Positions 47 through 14,597 of a DNA stretch of 14,597 nt are shown in pieces; position 1 is the first letter of the stretch; every line of letters starts with the position of its first letter. The DNA comes from Candidatus Sericytochromatia bacterium (lineage in GTDB: Bacteria; Cyanobacteriota; Sericytochromatia; S15B-MN24; VGJW01): contig JAYKHS010000023.1 in the NCBI GenBank assembly GCA_035285865.1, positions 1 through 14,597 of the forward strand, read 5' to 3'. Below the pieces are notes generated by a model that ran no database searches, had not been told where the DNA came from, and was given only the letters and a program-made list of their open reading frames with translations. A program made the translations under genes and the position numbers.

Positions 47-652
47 TCAGTAGTGGCAGGACCAGCAATCCTTGCTGGCGCCGTACTTGTCGTGACAGGA
101 GAGACAGGTGCCCATGCGGATCAGGTCCACCTCCTGGCGAACCACCTCCTGCTTGGCAATGTTGCCGTGGCAGTTGATGCACGCCGTTTCGGCTTCCTTG
201 CCCTGCTTGGTCGCCAGAGCATAGATATGCACCTGGTGGGGGAAGTGGGCGTGGTTCGGCAGGTCGTAGACCCGATTCCACTTCACGGGCTTGGTGGGAT
301 CCTTCAGCGTCATGTTCGGCGCATTGCCGGTCATGAACTTGCCGATTTCCTTCTGCTCCCACTCGGGCAGAGCGGCCGTATTCAGCGTCTTGTGACAACC
401 CGCACAGGTCTCCATCGCAGGAATGCCGGCGTGCGCGTTCTTGTCGACGAACTGATGGCAGTAGGTGCAGGAGATGCCCCTCTTGCCCACGTGGATCTCA
501 TGCGAGAACAGGATGGGTTGTTTGACCGGCGCCGCATGCGGAGCAGTGATGCTCCATCCGGTTTCGTGTGCGTGCTCGCTGTAGAGCACGAACGCGAGGG
601 CGCCGATGGCCACCACTGGGGCGACCGCCACAAGGGCCTTGATCGGGTTCAT
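47..652 (-). CDS. Membrane-anchored pentaheme cytochrome c (cytochrome c3 family; ActA/QrcA-like)
   Basis: N-terminal hydrophobic helix, QPILFSHEIH, five CxxCH motifs (CTYCH, CAGCH, CINCH, CLSCH, CWSCH), and the AGIP and W-RVYDLP--AHFPH--H segments typical of ActA/QrcA. ATG 652 is better spaced from GGAG than GTG 655. Confidence 0.9.
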   Translation of the reverse strand: MNPIKALVAVAPVVAIGALAFVLYSEHAHETGWSITAPHAAPVKQPILFSHEIHVGKRGISCTYCHQFVDKNAHAGIPAMETCAGCHKTLNTAALPEWEQKEIGKFMTGNAPNMTLKDPTKPVKWNRVYDLPNHAHFPHQVHIYALATKQGKEAETACINCHGNIAKQEVVRQEVDLIRMGTCLSCHDKYGASKDCWSCHY

Positions 653-785
653 CACGACTCCATAGGAAGGGAGAGAGAGCGAAGCTTGCCTGAATGGTTG
701 CGTGTCAGGGTACTAGGCTGCCCCCGTGAATGTCCAGACCGTCTCCGCAGGTTGAACACATCTTTACGTTCCGTGACACGACCCA

Positions 786-1529
786 TCAGATGCGTCCGCC
801 ATCTTCCAGAAGCGTCTGGCCCGTCATGTAAGAAAAATCCGGACCGGCAACTGCCACGATGCTGCGTGCCACCTCGTCCGGATCGGCCATGCGTCCGAGC
901 GGAATGCCGCGGACGACCGCTTCGCGCTGGTCCGCCGAAAGCCCGGCCTGAAGCCGCGTGTCGACATAACCGGGCGAGATCGCGTTGACCCTCACGCTCG
1001 GGGCATAGGCCCGCGCGGCCGATTTGGTCAGGGACACCACGCCGGCCTTTGCGGCGGCGTAGTGCGGCGAGGACGGCGCGCCTTCGAGCGCCCGCATGCT
1101 GGCCACCAGCACCAGACTGCCGCCACCCGCCTCGCGCATGCGGCCGGCCAGCGACTGGACGAGGAAGAAGACGGATTTCAGATTGACGGCGAGCACCTCG
1201 TCCCAGATGTCCTCCTCGATGTCCGACCACCCGCCGCGCCGGACGATGCCGTGACAGATGGCCGCCGAGGCCAGAGGCCCGGCGAGTTCCCACGCCCTCG
1301 CAACCAGTTCCCTGCAGGCCTCCGCGCCATCCAGAGGCGCGCACAGGGCCCAGGCCGACCCGCCGGATTCCCGAATCTCCTCCGCCACGGCTTCGGCTGC
1401 CCTCGCATCACGGCCCCCGTGCACGACGACACCTGCACCACGCGCCGCGAAGGCCAGCGCCGTGGCCTTGCCGATGCCGCTGCTGGCGCCCGTGACGAGT
1501 ACCGCGCTTCCCTGCCAGCCGCTGCCCAT
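786..1529 (-). CDS. SDR family NAD(P)-dependent oxidoreductase (FabG-like), 247 aa
   Basis: TGASSGIG Rossmann motif, catalytic YAAAK, VRVNAISPGYVDT and YMTGQTL. Start moved to ATG 1529, which has GGAGG upstream. Confidence 0.93.
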   Translation of the reverse strand: MGSGWQGSAVLVTGASSGIGKATALAFAARGAGVVVHGGRDARAAEAVAEEIRESGGSAWALCAPLDGAEACRELVARAWELAGPLASAAICHGIVRRGGWSDIEEDIWDEVLAVNLKSVFFLVQSLAGRMREAGGGSLVLVASMRALEGAPSSPHYAAAKAGVVSLTKSAARAYAPSVRVNAISPGYVDTRLQAGLSADQREAVVRGIPLGRMADPDEVARSIVAVAGPDFSYMTGQTLLEDGGRI

Positions 1530-1580
1530 CCGCGTGCCTCCGTGCTTGTCCCTCTCGGGTGTGGCTGCCAAGATAGCAGG

Positions 1581-1790
1581 ATGACGCGCCGCAAGATGCT
1601 TGCCACCCTGCTGATCACGGGGGGCCTCGCCCTCGCCACGTGGTCGCAGATGACCCTTCGCGACTTCGGTGGCCCGCAGGTCGTCAACCGGGAGTTCGTC
1701 CATGATGCTGCGGGACATACGAAGGATGAGCTCGTCGGCGTGGGCTCCGGCATCGTGCTGGTGCTGATCGGTGCCCTACTCGTGATCTAG
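1581..1790 (+). CDS. Small hypothetical membrane protein, 69 aa, two hydrophobic segments
   Basis: MTRRKMLATLLITGGLALATW...LVGVGSGIVLVLIGALLVI fills the SDR-ALDH gap. It has GC3-biased codons and is preceded by TGcCAAGAT. Its stop overlaps the ALDH stop (CTAG 1787-1790). Confidence 0.7.
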   Translation: MTRRKMLATLLITGGLALATWSQMTLRDFGGPQVVNREFVHDAAGHTKDELVGVGSGIVLVLIGALLVI

Positions 1791-3163
1791 GGCCGCCAGA
1801 CGCGCGGCAGCCAACGCTCCATCAACGTCGCCCAGCGGTCGTCGTAGGGATGAAGCCAGGGCCTGAAGGTCCACCGGAACCGAGGGGCGTTCACGTGCCT
1901 CCAGTGCACCAGGGCATCCAGGCCCTGCGTGCCGTGCACGCGCCCCCAACCGGAGTCCTTCTGCCCACCCCACGGGGTCTCGGGCATGGCGTGCGTCAGA
2001 ATCACTTCGTTGATCATGACCGTGCCGACCTGGAGGCGGGCCGCCAAGCGGCGACCGGCACGAACGTCGCGGGTGAAGACGTAGCCCAGCAGCCCCACCT
2101 CGCTCTCGTTGGCGAGTCGGACGGCCTCCTCGACGTCGTCGACGGGACACAGCGGCAGCAGGGGACCGAAGATCTCCTCGCGCATGACCCGTGCATCGGC
2201 AGGGCAGGGCGCCAGCAGGGCCGGTGCGTGATAAGGGTCCGGGAAGTGGGCGTCCGGCCTGATGACCTCGGCCCCCAGCGAGACGGCCTCGGCAACCTGT
2301 TCATCCCAGCGTGCAACGGCCTCGGGCATCGTGGGCCGACCGATGTCGATGCCCGGACGCAACCCCGCGACCTCGCGACGCAGAAGACCGAGCAGTGGCT
2401 CCCAGATGACGCGCGGCACATAGACCCGTTCGACCGAAGCGCAGACCTGACCGCAGTTGGCGAATGCCCCCCACGCGAGTGTCTTAGCCGTCTCCGCGAG
2501 GTCGGCATCCGGCAGCACGATGGCAGGTGCCTTGCCGCCCAGCTCGAGCGTGGTGGGGATGAGACGCTCCGCCGCGGCCACGGCCACCCGGCGCCCTCCC
2601 GGGACCGAACCGGTGAAGATGACATGGTCGGGTCGCGCCGCGATGAGTGCCTGCCCCGCCTCGGGACCACCCTCGGCCACGATCAGCAGATCGGGGTCGC
2701 CGCCTGTCTCGCGCCACCAGCGGACGAGCATTCGCGAGGACTCGGGCGTGCGTTCCGAAGGCTTCAGCACCACGGCATTTCCCGCCAGCAGCGCCGTGAC
2801 CGCATCGCCGATCCCGATCGCCACCGGAAAGTTCCAGGGCGCGATGATGCCGACGACGCCCACCGGCACGGGCACGAGGTCCGAGCGCCGATGGATGGCG
2901 AGATGCAGGGGAATTCGTCGCGCGCGCAGATGACGCGGCACGGACTTCATCTGGTGGCGCATGCCGTCCAGCAGAGGCAGCACCTCGTGGAAGAGCGCCT
3001 CGTAACGCGGCTTGCCTGTCTCGGCGGCAAGAACATCCGCGACCTCCCCCATGCCGGACAGGATGCGCCGCCACCACGGTCTCAGCGCACGCGCACGACG
3101 TGCGGGCTCGAGCCCCCCCCAGGCGCGCTGCGCCCTGCGGGCACGAAGCACCAGTTCCTCCAC
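1787..3163 (-). CDS. Aldehyde dehydrogenase family protein, 458 aa
   Basis: IAPWNFP, LKPSE, FTGS, LELGGK (catalytic Glu), GQVC (catalytic Cys), EEIFGP and PWGGxKxSG motifs. GAGGAGG precedes the GTG start. Confidence 0.95.
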   Translation of the reverse strand: MEELVLRARRAQRAWGGLEPARRARALRPWWRRILSGMGEVADVLAAETGKPRYEALFHEVLPLLDGMRHQMKSVPRHLRARRIPLHLAIHRRSDLVPVPVGVVGIIAPWNFPVAIGIGDAVTALLAGNAVVLKPSERTPESSRMLVRWWRETGGDPDLLIVAEGGPEAGQALIAARPDHVIFTGSVPGGRRVAVAAAERLIPTTLELGGKAPAIVLPDADLAETAKTLAWGAFANCGQVCASVERVYVPRVIWEPLLGLLRREVAGLRPGIDIGRPTMPEAVARWDEQVAEAVSLGAEVIRPDAHFPDPYHAPALLAPCPADARVMREEIFGPLLPLCPVDDVEEAVRLANESEVGLLGYVFTRDVRAGRRLAARLQVGTVMINEVILTHAMPETPWGGQKDSGWGRVHGTQGLDALVHWRHVNAPRFRWTFRPWLHPYDDRWATLMERWLPRVWRP

Positions 3164-3204
3164 GGCAAGGCCTCCTCGTCGGGCATATGCGGCATCATGT
3201 CACC

Positions 3205-4305
3205 ATGCGGGTCGACTGGGACGCCTTGCGTGCGGAGGCAGCCGCCTTGGGCTTCGATGCCGTGGGCGCCGCACCGGCTGACCCGTCGCGCCACGGACCC
3301 CGGTTCAGGGAATGGCTGGCCCGAGGTCATCATGGGCCGATGGCGTGGCTGGAACGGGAGCCTGAGCGCCGCATCGACCCGCGCCTCGTGCATCCGCCGG
3401 CGCGGAGCATCATCGTCGTCACGATGCGCCATGATCTGCCTCCGACGGGTCCCATGCCCGAGGACGTGCCCAGGGGGCGCATCGCGGCCTATGCCTTGGG
3501 TGATGACTACCACGACGTCATCAAGCCGAGGCTGCGGACCCTCGCGGAAAGGATCGGCGACCCGGTTGCCCGCGCCTACGTGGACACCGGCCCCGTGCTG
3601 GAGCGCAGCGCGGCCGAGGCTGCCGGCCTTGGCTGGATCGGTCGGAACTGCAACTTCATCGTGCCGGGCCAAGGATCGTTCACCTTCCTCGGAGTGCTGC
3701 TCACGGCCATCGAGACGCCGGTGCCACCCGCCATGCCCATCTCGTGCGGGCGATGCACGGCCTGCCTGGCGGCCTGTCCGACGGGAGCGCTCGTGGAGGG
3801 CAACCGCATCGATGCGCGGCGCTGCATCAGCACGCTGACCATCGAGACTCGTGGACCGCTTGCCCCGACCGATCGCCCTCTGCTCGGATCCTGGGTGTAC
3901 GGCTGCGACCTCTGTCAGGAGGCCTGTCCCTGGAACCGCAAGGCTGAGGGGACAAGGCAACCCGAACTGCGTGCCCTTGAAGACAGGCTCTTCCCTCCCC
4001 TCGATGGCCTGCTGGCCCTCGACCAGGCCGCATTCTCCGCGCGCTTCCGACGCAGCGCCATCAAGCGCACCAAACGCGAAGGTCTCGCCCGGAACGCCGC
4101 CGTAGTCCTGGGCAACAGCCGCCACCCCGAAGCGGCAGATGTCCTCGCGCGGCATCGGCGTCACGACCTGCCGCTCGTGCGCGCGCACGTCGCATGGGCC
4201 CTCGGGCAGCATCGTGCACGCCCGGTGCTCGAGGCCATGCGCCGCGAAGAGCGCGAGGCCACGGTACGCGCGGAAATAGACAAGGCTTTGTTGGGAATCC
4301 GTTAA
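3205..4305 (+). CDS. queG: tRNA epoxyqueuosine(34) reductase QueG
   Basis: LGFDAVG, GxIAAYAxGDDYH, YVDTGPVLER, AGLGWIGRN, Fe-S motifs CGRCTACLAACP and GCDLCQEACPWN, and RNAAVVLGN with a HEAT-like tail. ATG 3205 avoids overlap with ALDH. Confidence 0.95.
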   Translation: MRVDWDALRAEAAALGFDAVGAAPADPSRHGPRFREWLARGHHGPMAWLEREPERRIDPRLVHPPARSIIVVTMRHDLPPTGPMPEDVPRGRIAAYALGDDYHDVIKPRLRTLAERIGDPVARAYVDTGPVLERSAAEAAGLGWIGRNCNFIVPGQGSFTFLGVLLTAIETPVPPAMPISCGRCTACLAACPTGALVEGNRIDARRCISTLTIETRGPLAPTDRPLLGSWVYGCDLCQEACPWNRKAEGTRQPELRALEDRLFPPLDGLLALDQAAFSARFRRSAIKRTKREGLARNAAVVLGNSRHPEAADVLARHRRHDLPLVRAHVAWALGQHRARPVLEAMRREEREATVRAEIDKALLGIR

Positions 4306-4361
4306 ATCCCACAAGGCTGACCGTACCATCCGGTAAGAATATTGGGAGAGGAATCCAGAGC

Positions 4362-4664
4362 ATGAGCACCATCAAGGCCAACACCCCCCTGGCGCAGAAG
4401 GCTGCCCCGGTCAAGGTGGAGAATCAGACCTTCGACTTCGGGGCCATCGCCCAGGAAGTCGGCATGGCCCGCAAGACCCTCGGTGAGGACAAGTTCAAGG
4501 CCGAAAACCCCGGCATGTGGCAGCGGACCAAGGAGGTTTTCTCGTCCGGTGCCAAGAAGGAGCGCCTCCAGAAGATCGAGAACGCCGAGGCCTTCGAGAA
4601 GCTGTTCGACCAGTTGATGAACCTGGTGGCCAAAGCCAGCAAGGCCGTGTTCGGCGAAGCTTGA
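4362..4664 (+). CDS. Hypothetical helical protein, 100 aa
   Basis: GAGAGGA ribosome-binding site before ATG 4362, strongly biased codons (AAG, GCC, TTC, GAG), and a strong hairpin after the stop. No family recognised. Confidence 0.85.
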   Translation: MSTIKANTPLAQKAAPVKVENQTFDFGAIAQEVGMARKTLGEDKFKAENPGMWQRTKEVFSSGAKKERLQKIENAEAFEKLFDQLMNLVAKASKAVFGEA

Positions 4665-4749: not shown

Positions 4750-5634
4750 CTACCGGGGACCGAGGCCGAACAGGCCGAGGAATCCGCCCTTCTTGGTCGG
4801 CTTCGCCGCAGGCGCCTGCAACTGCCCCGTCGGCGTGCGCACAGGCAGAGGCAGACGGATGGGTTGCGGCTCCGGAAACAGCTTCGAGAACTCGGGATCG
4901 CCGGCGACCTCGGCAGGCAGGCGTTCGAGCTGATAGAGCTTGCCGGCGATGACCGGCGTCCGCATGTTCTGCAGCTGCTGCAGCGCATCCCGACCGCTCA
5001 AGCGCCGGACCTCGTCAACCTGCTTGGACAGCAGGGGCAAGGCCGAGCCAAGCTCCTCGTAGGTCTGCAAGGCCAACTGCAGACGCGGCAGAAGCTGCGC
5101 CTGGGTCTTGATACGCTCCTTCAGACGATTGAGCTGGGCGAGTTCCGGGGGACTGTAGCGTCCCGGGTTGCCGAGCGCCCCAGCCAGCATCCTCATCCGC
5201 GGGGCCAGATCATCCACGGCCAAACGCGCACTGGCGAGAATCGACTGGGCCTCGATGAGCCGCATGTTGGAGAGATCCTGGTTGGTGACGCGCAACGGCG
5301 TCGTATCGGCCCGGCCACCGGCAATCGAGGCAGGCTGGCGCGTCTGGGCCTCCTCGAAGCCCTCGGAAGCCGACTTGATCATCTGATAGAAGCCCATCTT
5401 CTGCTCGATGCGGCTCATGGCCTGATTCCGCTGGGGGCTCGGCGGCTGGGCGCGTAGCGCATCCAGTTCGGCCTGCTGCTGCTGCGCCAATTGGTCGAGG
5501 TAATCGAGCCGCATGCGCAGCTCACGGGTCGTGGCGCGGATCTGCTGTTCGAGGCGTGCGGCGTCCAGCTTTGCCTGGTCGGAGACGCCCGCGCGGTTCT
5601 CCTGTGCGCCCTGCGATTCTTGCGACGAAGCCAT
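4750..5634 (-). CDS. Hypothetical Gln/Leu-rich coiled-coil protein, ~294 aa, with a C-terminal amphipathic tail
   Basis: Long helical heptad-like stretches, a Pro-rich linker, and the ending KPTKKGGFLGLFGLGPR. The upstream ORF extension overlaps the divergent lipoprotein gene. ATG 5634 is preferred because ATG 5664 falls in the putative -35 box. Confidence 0.8.
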   Translation of the reverse strand: MASSQESQGAQENRAGVSDQAKLDAARLEQQIRATTRELRMRLDYLDQLAQQQQAELDALRAQPPSPQRNQAMSRIEQKMGFYQMIKSASEGFEEAQTRQPASIAGGRADTTPLRVTNQDLSNMRLIEAQSILASARLAVDDLAPRMRMLAGALGNPGRYSPPELAQLNRLKERIKTQAQLLPRLQLALQTYEELGSALPLLSKQVDEVRRLSGRDALQQLQNMRTPVIAGKLYQLERLPAEVAGDPEFSKLFPEPQPIRLPLPVRTPTGQLQAPAAKPTKKGGFLGLFGLGPR

Positions 5635-5705: not shown

Positions 5706-7808
5706 ATGCGTCGTACCTTGGTGCGTCTCCTCCTCCTGGTGGCCCTGAGCACCGTGGCCTGCCGGATTCCGGAGGCCGCCCCCGTCGTGCCGAGCACGTC
5801 CGGCCCCGCCAGCGAGCCCGGAACAATCCCGCAAACGCTGCCGTCGCCAACCTCGGGTCTCGCGGTGGACCCACCCCACGCGGGGCCAGGTGCGCGGCTG
5901 ACCCTCGTGGGGCAAGGGCTTGCCCTGCCGGGCACACGCATTCGCATCGGGGGTCGGGAAGCACTGTGGGAGGTCCTGGCGCGGCGGGTCCAGGGGACCA
6001 TCGATATGCTTTCCGTGACCGTGCCGACCGGTGCGCGCACAGGCGTCCTCGAACTGGTCCAGGATGAAGAGGTCCGGACTGCTCCGGTTGCCATCCTCGC
6101 CAGCCTCGACCTGCCCGAGAGCGAACTGGAACTGGCTGGACCGGGATTCCGGACCCGCCTCGCGTGGAGTGGCAAGGACACGCTCGGCCTCACCATCGAC
6201 CGACCACGGGTCAACTGGCTTGTCGAGCCTGCAGACCATGCAACCATCGACGCCTCGGGCAACCTCGTCGCCCTGCGGGCTGGGCGCGTCAGGCTGACCG
6301 CTCAGAGCGGATTCATCGCCACAACGCGGAAGACCTCGGCCATGGCGACGAGCGATGCTCCCGACCCTATCCTGATCGGCACGTCCTCGCTGCTGTTCCC
6401 GTTCGGGGCGGAACCCCTGCCCATTGCCGACAGGCTGTCCCTGACAACCGAAACGGGGACAGCCTCCCTCGTCGAGTACCAGCCCGGCGCAGCCCAAGCG
6501 GCGAGGGTCGGTCGCATCACGGACATGATTTATCCCTTCATGCTGGCCCCGCACTCCGAAACGACGCAGCAGGAGGGCATCCTGTTCGTGGACAGTACGG
6601 CCGGCAGGGTCCGCTTCGTTTCCCTGGCCGGCGCGGCAAATCCCGGCCAGAGTCTCGTCTGGACGGCCGTGGGGGGCGGCACGACGCTCCCGGGACCGAA
6701 CACCAACCACGAGATCCGCCTCGTCGAACCGTGGGGCATCGCCGAATGCGAAGACCCGTATATCGTCAATCCCGGCAACTCCAACGCCGGGTTTCTCGGC
6801 AGGCGAATGGTCGTCATCACCGATGCCGGCCGAGGCCGTGTCTACGGATGGTTGCCCGATCCGCCCGGACCGGGGGACATTCGGGCGCGCGACACGGTCT
6901 TTTCGCTGATGGGCGGCAACCCAACGGCTGTTGCCACGCCGGTTCCCAATGCTTCGGCCAGCGCGAATCCCAACGAGCGGATCGAACCGGGGGACTCGGT
7001 CCCGCTCGACGCCAGGGGCCTCATCGCGGCCGACAAGGCAGGACTGGGCCTGCCCCGCGGCATCGCCGCCGGCAAATTGATCCGGGGGACCACCCGAATC
7101 TTCATCGCCGACTCGGGCTACCACAGGGTGCGCATGCTGGTTCGCTACGCGCCATCCTCCGCTCGGTCGTCGAATGACACCACCGGGTACGTGACCACGC
7201 TGGTCGGAACCGGCAAACGCGGCAACGGCCTGGATCTCGCGACCACCCTCCTGACGAGCGACCTGAACGCCCTGCCCATCGGGGCGCCAATGGATGTGGC
7301 CGTCCACGAATTCTCGAAGACCTCTCCCGTCCTGAACCCCGTCCCGATTGACCTCGAGCAGCACCTCTACATCGCGGACACCGACAACCGTGCCATCCTT
7401 CGCCTGCGCCTCGAGTCGCCGATCGTCAACAACGGCGGACCGAGCACCGGCACCAATGCCGTCGAGCGGGATCTCCTGCGCCTGCGCTTCGCGACCTGCC
7501 CACTGGGCTACCCGGTGCAGCTCCAAGTGGCACCGACGACGGGCGCCAACCCGCCCGCGGACCTTCTCGTGACGGACACAAGCGGCAACACGATATGGCG
7601 CTATACCGTCAGTTCCGCCGGGCAAACCAGTGCACTGACCAGCCTGACCAGCTGGCTCGGACGCCCGAACCTCACCACCTCCTATCCAGGCCTGCTGCTG
7701 CCGACGGCGGCAACATTGGGCAATGCGGCCGGTACGATCTTCGTCGCCGATTCCTTCAATCACATGATCCGGTCGATGGATGCCACGGCCAGCTCAGCCT
7801 GTCCGTGA
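5706..7808 (+). CDS. Surface lipoprotein with IPT/TIG domain, Ig-like (Big_2-like) domain and NHL-repeat beta-propeller, 700 aa
   Basis: Signal peptide with lipobox-like TVA-C19 and a P/S/T-rich linker. IPT-like VDPPHAGPGARLTLVGQGL...VTVPTGARTG; Big_2-like VNW...ATIDASGNLVALRAGRVRLTA; about six NHL-like blades such as LPRGIA...IFIADSGYHRVR, PMDVAV...LYIADTDNRAI and IFVADSFNHMIR. Confidence 0.85.
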   Translation: MRRTLVRLLLLVALSTVACRIPEAAPVVPSTSGPASEPGTIPQTLPSPTSGLAVDPPHAGPGARLTLVGQGLALPGTRIRIGGREALWEVLARRVQGTIDMLSVTVPTGARTGVLELVQDEEVRTAPVAILASLDLPESELELAGPGFRTRLAWSGKDTLGLTIDRPRVNWLVEPADHATIDASGNLVALRAGRVRLTAQSGFIATTRKTSAMATSDAPDPILIGTSSLLFPFGAEPLPIADRLSLTTETGTASLVEYQPGAAQAARVGRITDMIYPFMLAPHSETTQQEGILFVDSTAGRVRFVSLAGAANPGQSLVWTAVGGGTTLPGPNTNHEIRLVEPWGIAECEDPYIVNPGNSNAGFLGRRMVVITDAGRGRVYGWLPDPPGPGDIRARDTVFSLMGGNPTAVATPVPNASASANPNERIEPGDSVPLDARGLIAADKAGLGLPRGIAAGKLIRGTTRIFIADSGYHRVRMLVRYAPSSARSSNDTTGYVTTLVGTGKRGNGLDLATTLLTSDLNALPIGAPMDVAVHEFSKTSPVLNPVPIDLEQHLYIADTDNRAILRLRLESPIVNNGGPSTGTNAVERDLLRLRFATCPLGYPVQLQVAPTTGANPPADLLVTDTSGNTIWRYTVSSAGQTSALTSLTSWLGRPNLTTSYPGLLLPTAATLGNAAGTIFVADSFNHMIRSMDATASSACP

Positions 7809-7863: not shown

Positions 7864-7888
7864 GTTAAGCCGATGGCCAGATGGGTAC
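7864..7888 (+). promoter_or_regulatory. Putative SigB/SigF-type promoter GTTAA-N14-GGGTAC
   Basis: GTTAA gccgatggccagat GGGTAC in the intergenic region, 41 nt upstream of TTG 7930. Resembles the B. subtilis SigB consensus GTTTAA-N12-14-GGGTAT. Confidence 0.5.
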
Positions 7889-7929
7889 ATCGCAAGCAAG
7901 GACGCCCTTGTCGGGTGCGGGGGAATGCA

Positions 7930-8967
7930 TTGGGAACCGATCTTCGCTACGGCCTGATCAATACCTTCTCGGTCATTGACCGGTTCAGGCAGAACGTCCT
8001 GTTCAACCTTCAGGGTGCGGTCTCCGCGGGCTTCAACCGCAAGAACACCCAGCTCACGGTATCCAGCAGTCTCACGAGCATCTCCGACGCTGCCTCGGGC
8101 GGCAGCAACCGGGCCTCTCGCGTAGGCATCCGCGGCGGTCCCAGCGAACTGCGCATCTCGGCCGTGGGTATCGACTTCCTGCAGGGCGGTCTTTCCCAGA
8201 AGGTCGGGAAGTACACGAACATCGCCATCAACGACAAGGCTCAGGGCCACTTCTTTGCCGTGGCCGAGTCCCTGCGCCCGGGCGCACGGGTTCTGCTGAC
8301 CCGCGACGGCGAGTTCCAATGGGAAGAGCAGAAGGACGGCGCCAGCAGGTCGGCCAATCGCCTGTGGCTGCTCAAGAACTCGCGTAACCTCTATGTGCTT
8401 CGCGCCCAGGACATCGAGTCCGATCCGACCAAGCCGGGCTTCTTCCGGGTCAAGGAACTGCCACCCGGCGAACAGGCCGGCATGATGACCTCGACCTCCT
8501 ACCAGCGCGATGCCACGCTCGCAGGACCGGCGGGCAGCGACCCCAAGACCGACGCCCTGCAGTGGGAACCGGATCGGCTGCGCGGCATCATCGGCTTCAC
8601 CGGGGATCCCTTCGACATGACGCCTGCCGAGCGCTCGAGCCCGCTGAACAACAACTCGGCTCTGGCCATCGTCAAGGTTCCCAGTCAGGGCACGCTTTCG
8701 GAATCGGCCTTCGGTGGGTCCATCTACGAGACGAACATCTCCAACCGGGCCGGAATCACCATCGAAAGCTACGCCGTACGCCGCGCCAGGAGCTCCGACG
8801 GCTTCCTAGAAGTGCAGAGCGAGACGCTCGAACAGCCCGACTTCAACAGCATCGAACGAGAGAGCAACATCACGCTCGACGTCGCCAACTTCGTCTACAA
8901 GAACCTCACGAAGATGCTGGACGACTACAACAACTCGATCGACCAGCTGATCAATCTGGTGAAGTAG
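7930..8967 (+). CDS. Divergent flagellar basal-body rod/hook-like protein (FlgG/FlgF/FlgE family), ~345 aa
   Basis: NVLFNLQGAVSAGFNR resembles IANNLANxxTxGFK; IDFLQGGL resembles DFSQGSL; NIAI...GHFFAV...LLTRDGEF resembles DLAIxGxGFFxV...YTRDGxF; the C-terminal LEQPDF...YKNLTKML...DQLINL resembles the LExSNV...Y..N.K...D..L helix. TTG start with a G-rich ribosome-binding site is inferred. Confidence 0.7.
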   Translation: MGTDLRYGLINTFSVIDRFRQNVLFNLQGAVSAGFNRKNTQLTVSSSLTSISDAASGGSNRASRVGIRGGPSELRISAVGIDFLQGGLSQKVGKYTNIAINDKAQGHFFAVAESLRPGARVLLTRDGEFQWEEQKDGASRSANRLWLLKNSRNLYVLRAQDIESDPTKPGFFRVKELPPGEQAGMMTSTSYQRDATLAGPAGSDPKTDALQWEPDRLRGIIGFTGDPFDMTPAERSSPLNNNSALAIVKVPSQGTLSESAFGGSIYETNISNRAGITIESYAVRRARSSDGFLEVQSETLEQPDFNSIERESNITLDVANFVYKNLTKMLDDYNNSIDQLINLVK

Positions 8968-8970
8968 CGC

Positions 8971-9819
8971 TCAGGGCGTAGCCAGACGCTCCAGACGCCG
9001 AATCCGCTCATCCATCGGCGGATGCGTGCGGAAGAGGTTCTCGAACCATGCGCCGGCACGAAGCGGATCGACGATGTAGAGGTGGGCCGAGGACGGCGAC
9101 ACGTGCGCCATCGGGGAACGCACGGCTTCCCGTTCGAGGCGCGCCAGCGCATCTGCGAGGGCCAGTGGCTGTCCCGTCATCCGGGCTGCACTGGCATCGG
9201 CCTCGAATTCTCGGGTCCGGGAAACGGCCATGCGCACGAGGAGCGCCGCGAAGGGCAAGAGCAGGGCCAGCAGGAGACCGGCCCAGGGGGATGGCTGGTC
9301 TTCATCGCCACGCCCTCCGCCGAGCAACGCTCCCCATCGCGCCATGTCCGCGAGAAAGCCGATGGCTGCCGCCAGAGATGCCGCCAAGGCCATGGCGAGG
9401 GTGTCGCGATTGCGGATATGAGCCAACTCATGGGCCAGTACGCCGCGCAATGCATCAGGCGGAAGCGTCCGCAACAGCCCTTCCGTCACGGCGACCACGG
9501 CGTGCGCGGGATCGCGCCCGGTCGCGAAAGCATTGGGTGCGTCCTCAGGAATCAGGTAGACCGCCGGCATCGGCATCCCTTCACGCGCCGCAAGCTGTGC
9601 CAGCAAGTCGTGGACGCCCGGAGCCTCCTCGGGGGACAAGGGCACGGCGCTACTCGTGGCAAGGACCAACCTGTCCGAGAACCACCAGCCCCCCAGGTTC
9701 AGGGCCACCGCAAGCAATGTGGCCCATGCAGCGCCCTGGCTGCCTCCAAGCGCGCGGCCGGCCACGACTAGCAGGCCGGACAGCAGGACGAGCAGGCTCA
9801 GGGTCTTGAGCTGGTTCAC
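8971..9819 (-). CDS. htpX: Zinc metalloprotease HtpX (peptidase M48)
   Basis: MNQLKT start, PNAFATGRDPxHAVVAVTEGL, HELAH zinc motif, SRTREFEAD, LFRTHPP..ERIRRL. GGAGG lies 8 nt before GTG 9819. Confidence 0.93.
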   Translation of the reverse strand: MNQLKTLSLLVLLSGLLVVAGRALGGSQGAAWATLLAVALNLGGWWFSDRLVLATSSAVPLSPEEAPGVHDLLAQLAAREGMPMPAVYLIPEDAPNAFATGRDPAHAVVAVTEGLLRTLPPDALRGVLAHELAHIRNRDTLAMALAASLAAAIGFLADMARWGALLGGGRGDEDQPSPWAGLLLALLLPFAALLVRMAVSRTREFEADASAARMTGQPLALADALARLEREAVRSPMAHVSPSSAHLYIVDPLRAGAWFENLFRTHPPMDERIRRLERLATP

Positions 9820-9890
9820 GACGAAGTCCTCCGTCATGAGGACGCTGGGAAGAGCGTCCGGGTTTCAGGGCGTCGGGCGACGCCATGTGC

Positions 9891-10673
9891 TCACGCCTGC
9901 CGCAGGAGGGCAATCGTCTCGCGCACGGCAGGTTCGAGGCCGACCTCGAGCGCCCGCGAGAACACCGCATGGCCCACATGGACCTCCTCGAGACCGGGAA
10001 CCGTCGCCAGGTCCGGCAAGGCGGCCAGAGCAAGCCCGCGACCGGCCGCGACACCGAGGCCGCGATCGGTCGCGACGGTGGCGGCCGAGGCCAGCTGACC
10101 CAGCGCGTGCGCGGGGTGTCCACCGCCCTTGAGGAAGCGCCCCTCCTGGAGGGCCTCGGCGTCGTCGGGCGGAGTCCAACCGGGGCGCAGGACCGTCCGC
10201 GCGTAAGCCGACGCATCCAGTTCGACACCATCCAGGCCCAGATCGGACGCTGCCAGCACCTGACCGGGATCAGGCGCCACGAAGGCCACGATACGGATGC
10301 CCACTTCGCGAAGCCGTGCGGCTACCGGCGCAATGGCCTCGCCATCCTCGAGCAGGTCCAAGGCAGGACCTGCCGCCGCATGCAGTGCCTCCTCGGGAAC
10401 GAGCGTGACCTGGTCGGGTTGCAGAAAAAGCAGATCCTCGAGCCGACCCCCGAAGGGTGAAGCCTCGATGTTGAAGTGACCGCGGAGCACTGATCGGAGC
10501 AGCCTGAGGTCGCGGGTGCTGACGGCAGAGGCCCGGGAAGCCAGCGAAACGCTGATGCCGTCGGCCCCGCCCGACTCCGCGCGAAGAGCAAGCGCCACAG
10601 GGTCGGGGTCGCGCCCCCCACGCATCGCGCGGGCAGCCACGAAGCCGTCCAGATGCACGGAGAGGCGCATCAT
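9891..10673 (-). CDS. pdxJ: PdxJ (pyridoxine 5'-phosphate synthase)-like protein with a degenerate active site
   Basis: Scaffold motifs PDPV, GADGI, RDLRLLR, FNIE, PDQVTLVPE, VEL, AGxGL, VGHAVFSRAL and AVRE are present. Many catalytic residues are substituted (see findings), so the symbol marks homology, not function. Confidence 0.75.
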   Translation of the reverse strand: MMRLSVHLDGFVAARAMRGGRDPDPVALALRAESGGADGISVSLASRASAVSTRDLRLLRSVLRGHFNIEASPFGGRLEDLLFLQPDQVTLVPEEALHAAAGPALDLLEDGEAIAPVAARLREVGIRIVAFVAPDPGQVLAASDLGLDGVELDASAYARTVLRPGWTPPDDAEALQEGRFLKGGGHPAHALGQLASAATVATDRGLGVAAGRGLALAALPDLATVPGLEEVHVGHAVFSRALEVGLEPAVRETIALLRQA

Positions 10674-13600
10674 CGAGCAGGCTCTCCCATCAGGTCGAGG
10701 GCACAGCGAACCTCGAGCGCGAGCTCACTGTCATTGTCGAGCAACCCGTGGGCCCGAACGAGGTGCGCGCGGGCCTCCTCGGTCCGCGCTTCGCTCAATA
10801 GACCGAAGCCCAGGCGCGCAAGAGCCTCGGGCTCGTCCGGATTGAGCACCAGAGCCTGTCCCCACGCCGCCATGGCCTCATCCTGCTGGCCTTGCCCGGC
10901 ACAGATGCGGCCCAGCGTCACGTGGTAGCGGGGGACCGCACCATGGACCACGGCATTGGTCGCGGCACGACGGGCCTCCTCGTGCTGCCCGAGATCGTGC
11001 AGCAGGCGGGCCAGCTCGTGCCAGCCCTCCGCGTGCCGTGGATTGCGGGCCACGAGATCACGATAGGTCTCGAGGGATGCGCGCTTCTCGAGGCGAGCCT
11101 CGAAGGCTTGGGCAAGATCGAACATGGCCTCCGGATCATCCGGCACGACGTCGAGGATGGCTTGTGCCCAATGGACAACCTCTCCGGGCTCTTCTCGCTC
11201 GCGTGCAATCCGGGACAACGCACGCAGCGAGGGCAGGTCACCGGGGCTCACCGCCACCACGCGCTTGAGGGCGGCCTCGGCACGCTGGGGGTGACCGACC
11301 TGCTTGTAGACATCCGCCAGGCGATGGCAGAGGGCCACATCATCCGGCTTGAGATCCACGGCCTTCTCGAGGCTATCGGCGGCCCCGAGCAGATCACCCA
11401 TGACGAGTCGGGCCTCGCCCACGGCGCGAAGCACCTCCGGATCACGCGGATGCTGGCGCATGACCAGCTGCCACCACTGATGGGCGGAGCGGGCATCACC
11501 GTGGGCCATGCACGTCCTGCCGAAGTGCCGGGCCAGAGTCGAGAAGAGCTCGAGTCCGCGCGGATGACGGCTCTCCCGCCGCAGCAGCTCCTGCAGATGC
11601 TCCCAGGCAGTGTCGGCCTCGCCATCACGCCAAGCCGCCTCGGCAAGCCCCAGCAGCGCGCCGCTCCGAGCATTGCCTCGGCCCACAAGGGCCGCGAAAC
11701 GCTCGCGCGCTGCCGCCACGAGGCCCCGATCGAGATCGAGCCAGGCACGTTCCTCGAGGGTCGCAAGATCCTCGGGGTCGAGCGAGAGCGCGCGAGAAAG
11801 CGATGCTTCGGCCTCGTCGTAACGTGCCTCGGCGCGTGCCAGCGCCCCAAGGGCACGGTAGGCCTCCATGTCCTGCGACACGATCCTGAGTAGCGCCTGC
11901 CAGGCCTCCCGAGCCGCTTCAGGGCGGGCCTCGAGAGTGGCGGCCCGCGCCAGACGCCGACAGACTTCGGCCCCGAGCGTCATGGCCCGGGCATGCGCAG
12001 GGCGCCGCGTCAGCACTCTGTCCAGATGCACCCACGCCACGGCGTCCTGTCCCTGTCGCACGGCCATTTCTGCGGCGGAAAGCCAATCCTCCTCGGGCTG
12101 GTCCGAGACCTCGGCGGCCGCAAGAACAGCGTCCATCGCCTCGCCTACCCGCCCACCCCGCTCGAGCAGGGCAGCCAGCGCACGATGGGCACGCGCCATG
12201 CCCGGCTCCCGCTCAAGAACTCCGCGAATGATGTCGACGGCCTCCGCCGGCTGCTCGACGGCTATCAGGACGGCCAGCTCGAGCCACCCGGCATCATCAC
12301 GCTGATGGCGCGCCAGCCAGGGACGCAACAGGGCCTCGGCCTCGGCGACGCGTCCTTCCCGACCGTGCAGGGCGGCCAGTTCGAAAACCGCTTCCCGATC
12401 CTGCGGCGCAAGCGCCATCTGGACCTGCCTGTAGACGAGCGCGGAGGCCGCATCTCCATCGAGATCGGCTGCCTGAGCCATCTCGCGTGCGATGCCGCCG
12501 GCCACCCGTCGAGCCTCGGGATGGGCACCATGTGCGTCCAGCAACCGCTGCGCCACCACCCAACCCGAGTCGAGCCTTCCGGCATCCAGACAGACACCGG
12601 CAACAGCGACCAGAGCCTCGCGCTCGAGTTCCGGATCGCCCTCCGCTTCGGCGAGCACGCGCTCGCTGAGCACCAAGGCGTCCTCCGTCCGACCCGACCT
12701 GGCCAGCCACATCATCTCGATGCGACGCTGCACCCCCGAATCGCCGTCCAAAGACCGCATCTGCTCGAGGACACGCCCCGCCGCGACCTGACCGCCGGCA
12801 GCCATCATCCCCAGGCAGACCACCCGCAGCCTGTCGGCACGATCCGCGACAAGTGGCGCGAGTTCTTCCCACTGACGTACGGCCGCCTCATGCCGACCCG
12901 CACCTGAGAGTTCCTCCGCCCGGCTTCGGCCCGCTTCCCATGCCAGCTCCACGGCCGAAAGCGAGCGCGGATGCCTGGCCAGGACCCGCCCCGTCCAGAG
13001 CCATGCTCCCGCGGCGTCTCCGCGCGTCAGCGCCTGTTCGGCAAGCGCGCAGCCCACGCGCTCCGTGCCGTGGGCCGCGTGATGGTCCTCCCAGAGACCG
13101 AGTGCCTCCTCATTGCGACCCGCAGTCAGCAGGGCCCGGCCGAGCGCCACGACGGCCTCCGCATCCTCCGGACGATCCTCATGCAGGACCCGCAGCATGT
13201 CGAGTGCCTCGTCGGCGAGGCCGAGGGCAAGGCCGAGTCGCGCAGCCGAGGCGAAGGACTCGCGGTCATCCGGCAGCAGACGACCGACCTTGAGCCACGT
13301 CTCGCGGGCCGTCCGCAAATCGCCGGCCGCCTCCGCATGGGCTGCCTGCCAACGCAGGACGTCCACGAACGCACGACGCAGCATGGCTTCGGAGAGCCCA
13401 CGGGCCTCCGCGTGACCCCACGCCTCGTCCACGGCATCGGCGACGCTCGGCCCGGCGAGATCCTGCCGGTCCAGACGCCGGATGAGCTGAAGGGCAGCCC
13501 ACGCTGCCTCGCGCTCGGGACGACCCTCGATGGCGGCCTGCCGTTGGTCCAGGCGATCCAGCCAGGGGCGCGCCGACTCGAGATCACCAGTAGCGAACGC

Positions 13601-14476
13601 CAGACGAGCCGCCGCAAGGGCATTCTCGACCGTCTCCACCGGATCGGCAGGAGTCGACTCGAGGCGTTCGCGCAGGGCGAGGGCCGTCCGCAGGTCTCCC
13701 AATTTCTCGAAAGCCTCGGCCGCGGCAAGTCCCAGCAGACGCTCGCCGGGCAGGGCATCCCACAAGTCCCTGAGGACGGCCGCCTCCACTTCGCCATCGC
13801 CCGCCCGTCGCGCCGCATCCAGAGCGAGGCGCAACAGCGCCGGGAACTGGAGGCCGATGGCGGCCACGCGCGTCCGCAGCCGCAGAATTTCGACATCCCG
13901 ACCTTCCAGGCGCGCACCCTCGGCCTGCTTGAGGACCGCGTGCTCCAGCAGGGCACGTTCCTCCTCCGTCAGACGGCCTTCGCGCCCCATGGCGAGCACG
14001 GCCTCGATGACCGTCCCATGGTCCTGAATCGCCGCCCCGAGCCTTGCTTCGGCCAGTCTGAGTCCTTCGGCCCTCGGGTCACGCTCGCGCGCCGTCCCCA
14101 GGGCACGATGCGCGTCATCGTGGCGGCCGGCCATCTGCAAGGCTTCGGCCTCACGGATGGGCCAGCGTGCCGACTCCGGCTCCATCCGCGCCAGCTCGCC
14201 ATAAAGACGGGCCGCATCGACAGGACGTTCCATCACCAGCAGCAAATCGGCGTAAGCAGCGCGTGCCTCGCGATCCGTCGGTCGGAGCAGAAGGAGACGA
14301 TGCAGCCAGATGGCGCGCTCCGCATCGGGCCCGGCGGCACCGGCAGCTTCACGCGCCAGCTCCGCCATCGCTGTCCCTGTTTCCGGGTCATCGGGCTGCA
14401 GCGCATCCAGTCGCTGGAGTGCCGCCCAGCCTTCGGCAAGGCGCCCTGTGGCCCGCAGCGCGCGTGCCAGCAGCAT
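10670..14476 (-). CDS. Giant tetratricopeptide-repeat protein (>=1268 aa), probably 5'-truncated
   Basis: Ala/Leu/Arg-rich helical repeats with TPR signatures throughout, e.g. LEKAVDLKPDD, ALVLNPDEPEALARLG, RALSLDPED. The frame stays TPR-like upstream of ATG 14476 (ALQGYPDAL-MLLARAL) and no ribosome-binding site is evident. Confidence 0.88.
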   Translation of the reverse strand: MLLARALRATGRLAEGWAALQRLDALQPDDPETGTAMAELAREAAGAAGPDAERAIWLHRLLLLRPTDREARAAYADLLLVMERPVDAARLYGELARMEPESARWPIREAEALQMAGRHDDAHRALGTARERDPRAEGLRLAEARLGAAIQDHGTVIEAVLAMGREGRLTEEERALLEHAVLKQAEGARLEGRDVEILRLRTRVAAIGLQFPALLRLALDAARRAGDGEVEAAVLRDLWDALPGERLLGLAAAEAFEKLGDLRTALALRERLESTPADPVETVENALAAARLAFATGDLESARPWLDRLDQRQAAIEGRPEREAAWAALQLIRRLDRQDLAGPSVADAVDEAWGHAEARGLSEAMLRRAFVDVLRWQAAHAEAAGDLRTARETWLKVGRLLPDDRESFASAARLGLALGLADEALDMLRVLHEDRPEDAEAVVALGRALLTAGRNEEALGLWEDHHAAHGTERVGCALAEQALTRGDAAGAWLWTGRVLARHPRSLSAVELAWEAGRSRAEELSGAGRHEAAVRQWEELAPLVADRADRLRVVCLGMMAAGGQVAAGRVLEQMRSLDGDSGVQRRIEMMWLARSGRTEDALVLSERVLAEAEGDPELEREALVAVAGVCLDAGRLDSGWVVAQRLLDAHGAHPEARRVAGGIAREMAQAADLDGDAASALVYRQVQMALAPQDREAVFELAALHGREGRVAEAEALLRPWLARHQRDDAGWLELAVLIAVEQPAEAVDIIRGVLEREPGMARAHRALAALLERGGRVGEAMDAVLAAAEVSDQPEEDWLSAAEMAVRQGQDAVAWVHLDRVLTRRPAHARAMTLGAEVCRRLARAATLEARPEAAREAWQALLRIVSQDMEAYRALGALARAEARYDEAEASLSRALSLDPEDLATLEERAWLDLDRGLVAAARERFAALVGRGNARSGALLGLAEAAWRDGEADTAWEHLQELLRRESRHPRGLELFSTLARHFGRTCMAHGDARSAHQWWQLVMRQHPRDPEVLRAVGEARLVMGDLLGAADSLEKAVDLKPDDVALCHRLADVYKQVGHPQRAEAALKRVVAVSPGDLPSLRALSRIAREREEPGEVVHWAQAILDVVPDDPEAMFDLAQAFEARLEKRASLETYRDLVARNPRHAEGWHELARLLHDLGQHEEARRAATNAVVHGAVPRYHVTLGRICAGQGQQDEAMAAWGQALVLNPDEPEALARLGFGLLSEARTEEARAHLVRAHGLLDNDSELALEVRCALDLMGEPAR

Positions 14477-14512
14477 CAGCGCGTCCGGGTAGCCCTGCAG
14501 CGCGGCTCCGAG

Positions 14513-14597
14513 ACCTTCCAGGCAGTGGTCAGAATCGAGATCGACAAGCGCTATCAGTTTCCCAAAGACAGCTCAGCAAAAATTCTCACCGCAGGCC
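14513..14597 (+). other. mlaD: Internal fragment of an mlaD-like (MCE family) gene
   Basis: Translates as TFQAVVRIEIDKRYQFPKDSSAKILTAG, matching the MlaD segment just before GLLGEQY. There is no start codon or N-terminal MlaD part upstream, and the DNA is visibly more AT-rich than the rest of the window. Confidence 0.75.

Follow-up and report, generated by a model that had tools for sequence, protein, structure and literature searches.

In section 13 of PMC9997740, pdxJ is described as the signature gene of the DXP-dependent pathway of vitamin B6 synthesis; the same paper lists Caldithrix abyssi among genomes with both B6 pathways, and the part of it available to us contains no mention of inactive PdxJ. 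PdxJ is an octamer in which a closing loop (residues 95-105) covers the active site, and the residues D11, H12, T103, H155, G194 and N213 lie near its intermediate, as outlined in section 8 of PMC10471632. A pseudoenzyme is on record in the other B6-synthase family: plant PDX1.2 belongs to the PdxS/PDX1 family of PLP synthases, according to the accessible portions of PMC6829848 and bioRxiv 10.1101/717082. Our own survey of the literature, made from titles and the beginnings of abstracts and covering subscription papers and supplements thinly, returned no description of a dead PdxJ, and no list of residue roles for PdxJ was found in the literature. We take H45, E72 and H193 (E. coli numbering) to be the acid-base residues of PdxJ, and H12, R47, R51, H52 and T102 to be its DXP site; N9, R20, G194, G215 and H216 presumably form the amino-ketone or product phosphate site, with which we group E153, and N9 and H193 presumably contact the ring of the product. 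Outside these families, the PLP homeostasis protein YggS/PLPBP is a TIM barrel without catalytic activity that holds PLP as a Schiff base with a lysine.

Here we describe a member of the PdxJ family that departs from all of these systems. It lies in a window (the whole stretch of DNA that was analyzed, 14,597 nucleotides) on contig C23 of genome G000, which is 83% complete and belongs to a genus of Ca. Sericytochromatia (Table 1). By sequence and fold the gene is a PdxJ: its product matches the Pfam model PF03740 with 166.2 bits (cut-off 24.5) over positions 1-233 of the 234 in the profile, which bears out the initial annotation of a full-length, unbroken frame with a PdxJ scaffold. As in the described enzyme, pyridoxine 5'-phosphate (PNP) synthase (EC 2.6.99.2; PF03740; TIGR00559; PDB: 1m5w, 1ho1, 6rg0), there is whole-length homology, a TIM-barrel fold, a predicted dimer, seven kept residues and the ancestral locus of the order. 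In contrast to E. coli PdxJ, 10 of 16 motif residues are replaced, the lid is eroded, an extra insertion is present, no pdxA is detectable, and the score falls below all six cut-offs of the NCBIfam PdxJ equivalogs (for example 131.6 against 192.75 for TIGR00559). The protein would resemble PDX1.2, as the latter is portrayed in the sources available in part, in being a non-catalytic member of a B6-synthase family that is kept by selection. However, PDX1.2 is a paralogue regulating an active partner, whereas the present gene belongs to the other family and is single-copy, with neither an active PdxJ nor a PdxS found that it could regulate. The likeness to YggS/PLPBP is a functional analogy between unrelated families, and YggS is separately encoded in these genomes.

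All four genomes of the genus, a sample of species-level sequences that are mutually related, have one PF03740 match each, which is a single full-length copy free of stops; mutual identity is 58-89%. Further members of this family were sought in several collections. A metagenome scan yielded one locus, on the same contig as that of G003, and a search centered on the insertion recovered the four known clusters and nothing else. In a profile search of 1.8 billion representatives the family fell into a single cluster (489 bits), the next match scoring 150, and a search of the ESM Atlas returned PdxJ clusters only.

Table 1. Features of the window, in order of position.
Feature	Positions	Strand	Remarks
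Multiheme cytochrome c7/c3-like protein	47-655	-	Ordinary gene
Short-chain dehydrogenase	786-1532	-	Ordinary gene
Aldehyde dehydrogenase	1787-3163	-	Ordinary gene
QueG	3100-4305	+	Ordinary gene
ORF	4194-4436	-	
ORF	4753-5634	-	No Pfam match; 78-89% identity in genus
700-aa protein	5706-7808	+	Probable lipoprotein-type N-terminus; weak NHL repeat match
364-aa protein	7873-8967	+	No Pfam or NCBIfam match
htpX-like M48 protease gene, downstream	8971-9837	-	Ancestral neighbour
pdxJ-derived gene	9891-10673	-	260 aa (260 codons), single copy, intact frame, predicted (beta/alpha)8 barrel
Retained phosphate-site half	9969-10040	-	G211-R212-G213 (H193R, G194) to H232-V-G234-H235 (N213H, G215, H216); invariant in 4/4
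Family-specific insertion	10110-10193	-	Residues 161-188; also in the canonical PdxJs of G004, G005 and G007; 17/28 invariant in genus
Eroded active-site lid	10362-10397	-	Residues 93-104 (E. coli 95-106); invariant in genus at 1/12
Eroded HLREDRRH signature	10524-10547	-	Residues 43-50, SLASRASA; H45, R47, R51 and H52 replaced, variable in genus
TPR-repeat gene, upstream	10670-14476	-	Stop overlaps pdxJ start (RTGA) in 4/4 genus genomes

Aligned with HMMER, the protein and E. coli PdxJ (1m5w) run together without gaps across residues 3-159 (offset +2) and 186-258 (offset -19), and the alignment reveals the replacements N9H, H12G, H45S, R47A, R51S, H52A, T102A, T103A, H155D and H193R, with D11, R20, E72, E153, G194, G215 and H216 kept. 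Every substitution that the initial annotation had read by eye was thereby reproduced, as was the retention of R20, E72, E153 and the C-terminal GH (G215, H216); proper alignment, named there as a possible refutation, did not restore the missing residues. The same 10 of 16 residues are replaced in all four genus genomes. H45 has become S, A or P and H193 has become R throughout, E72 being retained; all of the residues that we assign to the DXP site, together with the closing loop, are replaced and variable, and the loop 43-53 is invariant at 1 of 11 positions within the genus. The canonical copies of the family and the order have lost none of the 16 residues (13/13), and all 116 other homologues have lost at most 2; hence, the losses cannot be put down to chance or ordinary drift. 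Across 41 canonical sequences, 79 positions hardly vary; at these, the genus retains the residue in 38 cases, has fixed a new one in 9 and varies in 32. Judged by the motifs, the cut-offs and the pathway considered below, the product very probably no longer makes the vitamin.

The pathway context points the same way. A search for pdxA was negative in all four genus genomes (83, 86, 94 and 98% complete), to be read as not found and not as proven absence, versus 13 of 13 genomes with a canonical pdxJ; overall the gene occurs in 14 of 41 genomes, the remaining one being G006 (64% complete). Neither pdxS nor a canonical pdxJ, both of which the initial annotation had suggested looking for, was found in the four genomes, and the single pdxS among the 41 genomes lies outside the order. 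A B6 kinase (PdxK/ThiD-like, PF08543) gave nothing beyond weak partial matches in the five genomes tested, similar in size to that of the Nnr protein of locus L036. No PdxH was detected in five genomes tested for it, G004 included, and no PNPOx-like genes were found in the four genus genomes or in G004, G005 and G007. Within the order, dxs was detected in just 1 of 27 genomes, and a DXP synthase was not found in 12 of the 13 that combine canonical pdxJ with pdxA; the DXP source and the PNP oxidase are pathway holes across the order. The lack of dxs, pdxH and PNPOx was considered as evidence specific to the genus and rejected, because canonical relatives lack the same genes. YggS (TIGR00044) is present in all five genomes tested, including all four of the genus, and therefore PLP is probably needed by these bacteria.

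The gene has nevertheless not decayed in the usual fashion. For five pairs, NG86 dN/dS ranges over 0.11-0.22, which corresponds to the 38th-70th percentile among other pairs of orthologues in the genomic regions compared (n = 235, 171, 16, 14 and 45; best matches with at least 40% identity and at least 150 codons); in the least saturated pair, G001/G003, dN is 0.059 and dS 0.49. A codon model gives an omega of 0.079 (2dlnL of 413 versus omega = 1) on a tree length of about 6 substitutions per codon, and canonical comparison sets give 0.057 and 0.103. Protein identity lies in the lower third of the orthologue pairs (14th-31st percentile). In three relatives without pdxA (G019, G013 and G023) the TPR gene is followed within about 300 bases by an htpX-like gene, and no trace of pdxJ was found between them; thus, in-place deletion was an available outcome. 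In our estimate it is very likely that some function of the protein keeps the gene in place. The three other genus genomes have orthologues that lack the canonical motifs, show no frameshift and evolve under strong purifying selection, and along with omega and the missing pathway genes they support the original suggestion that losses within an unbroken frame do not represent ordinary decay.

The extra segment that had been noticed is also real (about residues 161-188), but it is not part of the degeneration: the canonical PdxJs of G004, G005 and G007, which belong to the same family, carry it as well, and it hence predates the loss of the motifs. Among 458 proteins compared, a profile built from these three alone matched only them and the genus. 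Insertion identity to G004 is 16-18 of 28 positions, against 39-41% for the whole protein. A TPR gene lies upstream of the canonical pdxJ in 12 of the 13 loci of relatives, and htpX lies downstream in 6 of 13; in G004, G005 and G007 the downstream neighbour is not htpX. In a tree that included other long-branched dead PdxJs, the genus, whose stem branch is very long at about 2.5 changes per column, grouped with these and not with its own family. An AU test did not reject the union of genus and family (p=0.069), and in a tree without the other dead PdxJs the genus and its family came together, though not with strong support (76/72). As the trees are weak and long branches group together, the question of origin rests on insertion and synteny, from which we read the gene as an in-place orthologue, the genus's own former pdxJ, apparently altered on the genus stem.

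Dead PdxJ is not a one-off and recurs in many lineages. The profile search of 1.8 billion supplied 149 cluster representatives, of which 50 are without 7 or more of the 16 motif residues. A second concentration is the G041 group, for which 81 genomes were split into two runs by listing order and not by kinship labels. In the first run (G041-G071), pdxA was found in 0/31 genomes, while 23 of the 31 have PdxS and 25 have a PdxJ with a low score. The 24 of these 25 PdxJs that were examined (a contig-edge fragment in G050 was left out) all lack 9-14 residues, the count of 14 being inflated by a misaligned N-terminus, and six of them group as a single clade (support 99/97). In the second run (G072-G121), pdxA is found in 47/50 genomes and the 28 PdxJs examined have lost no motif residue; all 18 genomes of this run with PdxS are devoid of a PdxJ match, and most of them have pdxA. 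At L036, one of the loci of the G041 group (L036/L076, L108-L130), the dead PdxJ is placed between glmM and nnr. At L077 (G041:C174:1-191), a canonical-looking 3' fragment of pdxJ stands at the start of a contig, the full-length copy of G041 being dead; the fragment is either a second copy or bin contamination.

A sample of 301 genomes of the phylum contained five further genomes with low-scoring PdxJ. Four of them (genera g93 and g115; 99% complete) have a full-length PdxJ without 11-12 motif residues and no pdxA, and in the fifth, which has pdxA, a canonical gene is split over contigs. At L163-L166 (G370, G340, G280 and G382), the dead full-length PdxJ follows murT; these genomes are small, belong to the same phylum and show no pdxA, and apparently constitute a separate case. 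In three genome groups, motif loss and a lack of pdxA go together. The gene in the window shares with the G041 group, g93/g115 and the 50 representatives a full-length intact barrel without the signature motifs, and pdxA was not found in the two of these groups that were tested. Unlike the G041 group, which mostly has PdxS (23/31), the genus is without PdxS. It also keeps the entire half of the pocket comprising R20, E72, E153, G194, G215 and H216, as none of the 50 representatives does. From the insertion and synteny, its degeneration is judged to be separate in origin from that of the other dead PdxJs. The PdxJ proteins P0122, P0130, P0144, P0273 and P0292 are about 400 residues long, and P0273 and P0292 match PF02130 besides PF03740, suggesting fusions.

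Within the genus, erosion of the pocket is one-sided. The phosphate/product side is invariant at 11/11 positions and the DXP/lid side at 0/7, against a background of 138/260; these groups were drawn after the alignment had been viewed, from the presumed residue roles given above and four related sequences, and against a stricter background of strand positions (24/35 invariant) the 11/11 reaches only about p=0.02. H7, D9, R18, E70, E151 and D153 are invariant in all four genomes, as is the retained half in Table 1. Four of the 11 invariant pocket residues are new, namely N9H, H155D, H193R and N213H. In a control on the G041 group, 0/72 pairs at 55-80% identity share all nine non-glycine positions, whereas all six pairs of the genus do so. 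The combination of D11, R20, E72, E153, G194, G215 and H216 is likewise kept in full by the genus and by none of the 50 degenerate representatives. H193R and N213H recur in 12/50 and 11/50 of these other dead PdxJs, respectively, and both are single-base changes; they accordingly need not be adaptive.

Structure prediction agrees with the assignment to the family. The best of five models has a pLDDT of 84.9, three of the models being below 65; the best Foldseek matches are all PdxJ, with a TM of about 0.8, and VIA aligned 234 residues to PdxJ 6rg0 (Z 32.6, rmsd 2.0 A), with the next match at Z 20.6. A homodimer model scored 0.53 versus 0.00 for the best control, its runs sharing at least 96% of contacts at a pLDDT of at least 88; of solved structures, 20/30 homodimers but only 1/23 monomers come up to this mark, and the score is probably owed to resemblance to solved PdxJ. 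R18, G213 and H235 sit in the predicted dimer interface of this model.

The sequence evidence, taken together, makes it very probable that PNP synthase activity is gone, and we think it probable that the small-molecule pocket still matters. Our preferred reading, held tentatively and at somewhat less than even confidence, is that the dead synthase has been kept as a predicted-dimeric, non-catalytic binder of a phosphorylated small molecule; the initial annotation had offered ligand binding, a scaffold role and new chemistry side by side, and the data tilt towards the retained half-pocket without deciding the choice. According to this reading, an ancestor would have lost pdxA, leaving PdxJ without its amino-ketone substrate. 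H12, R47, R51, H52, T102, the H45/H193 acid-base pair and the closing lid would then have been released and would now be drifting. The other half-pocket, made up of the phosphate site (G194, G215, H216), D11, E72, E153 and the dimer-interface residue R20, would have stayed fixed and gained the four newly fixed residues, of which H193R adds a positive charge next to the phosphate site. What would remain is a pocket that lacks its lid, stays open and is anchored on a single phosphate, and its job might be the buffering, storing or sensing of imported B6 phosphate. Such handling is the most economical job, because PLP is apparently needed (given YggS) and no route of synthesis is seen. Scavenged B6 phosphate is the first and most plausible candidate, although the overall odds that a B6 vitamer is bound are rather low. 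N9H and H193R alter residues that presumably contact the product ring; YggS could already perform the buffering; neither a clear kinase nor a PNP oxidase was found for the supply of B6; and B6 binding cannot be the general reason for retention, because other dead PdxJs also lose E72, E153 and R20.

An invariant pocket with two glutamates, an aspartate pair and three histidines would suit catalysis equally well. H7, D9, E70, E151, D153, R212, H232 and H235 could constitute a new, possibly metal-binding active site for a phosphorylated substrate, with aldolase-, epimerase-, isomerase- or phosphatase-type chemistry such as other phosphate-binding barrels carry out. The four replacements fixed in 4/4 genomes, all polar or charged and at strand ends, are in keeping with this, as are the retention of E72 and E153, unlike in most dead PdxJs, and a very long stem branch followed by normal purifying selection. 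However, the lid that would close the site is lost, the structure search places no second family near PdxJ, and the ancestral neighbours are unchanged, with no pathway gene having arrived alongside, so that we regard a neofunctionalised enzyme as unlikely. A pure scaffold or moonlighting role, in which an old non-enzymatic job exerted through the oligomer surface, for example with the TPR protein, alone keeps the gene here and in other lineages, is also rather unlikely. It would account for the recurrence of dead but intact PdxJs, most of which erase both halves of the pocket, and it fits the better conservation of the insertion than of the whole protein relative to G004 and the overlap of the TPR stop with the pdxJ start in 4/4 genomes. 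On the other hand, the TPR gene persists where pdxJ is deleted, the neighbours differ in other lineages (glmM and nnr in L036; murT in g93 and g115), and the invariant polar pocket is left unexplained. Across the 50 degenerate representatives, conservation of the predicted interface is 0.53 versus 0.47 for the rest (p=0.12), which does not support the interface as their common retained feature; within the genus 14/24 interface positions are invariant, again not significantly more than elsewhere, and the scaffold reading is weakened accordingly.

The remaining alternatives are much less probable. A useless operon gene in slow decay, selected only against misfolding or polar effects on htpX, would agree with the low protein identity and with translational coupling to the upstream neighbour; but the omega of 0.08 by itself already largely refutes it, there is no stop or frameshift and the length is equal in 4/4 genomes, three relatives show clean deletions in place, and in G004, G005 and G007 the gene next downstream is one other than htpX. 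We consider it very improbable. It is still harder to believe that a residual PNP synthase operates with rearranged residues and a substrate source other than PdxA. E72, E153 and R20 are indeed kept, the order has unexplained B6 holes in any case (dxs in 1/27), and B. subtilis can evolve feeding of PdxJ without PdxA, according to the portion available of PMC7954711. Against this, the HLREDRRH signature and the lid, near-invariant in the 41 canonical sequences, drift freely here, and motif loss coincides with the absence of pdxA in all three genome groups. A broader and more speculative proposal, which we think somewhat unlikely as a whole, is that PdxJ has a second, undescribed function that outlives B6 synthesis. 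Dead PdxJ would then emerge repeatedly after pdxA loss, and here the barrel would have been rebuilt as an enzyme or receptor around H7, D9, E70, E151, D153, R212, H232 and H235, possibly providing a route of PLP capture in bacteria without known genes for B6 synthesis or salvage.

These observations have a bearing on genome annotation. Orthologues of this protein are annotated as working synthases, and with pdxJ as a marker such genomes would be scored as B6 producers though they probably are not. The genus also represents a natural experiment, combining canonical orthologues that have the same insertion and locus, relatives that have deleted the gene, and four species with a half-erased copy; recurrence in other lineages suggests that the answer on a non-catalytic role of PdxJ will be general.

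The surroundings of the gene provided some further observations. The TPR frame (10670-14597, minus strand) spans 1300 codons and ends at a stop roughly 25 bases short of the contig end; the corresponding frames have 2366-2465 codons in G001, G002 and G003 and up to about 3600 elsewhere in the order, and the short frame could reflect either a split gene or an error at the end of the assembly. The 700-residue protein is fast-evolving, with 48-74% identity in the genus. The 364-residue protein is found near pdxJ across the order, with identities of 80-93% in the genus, 46-48% to G005/G007 and 35% to G011.
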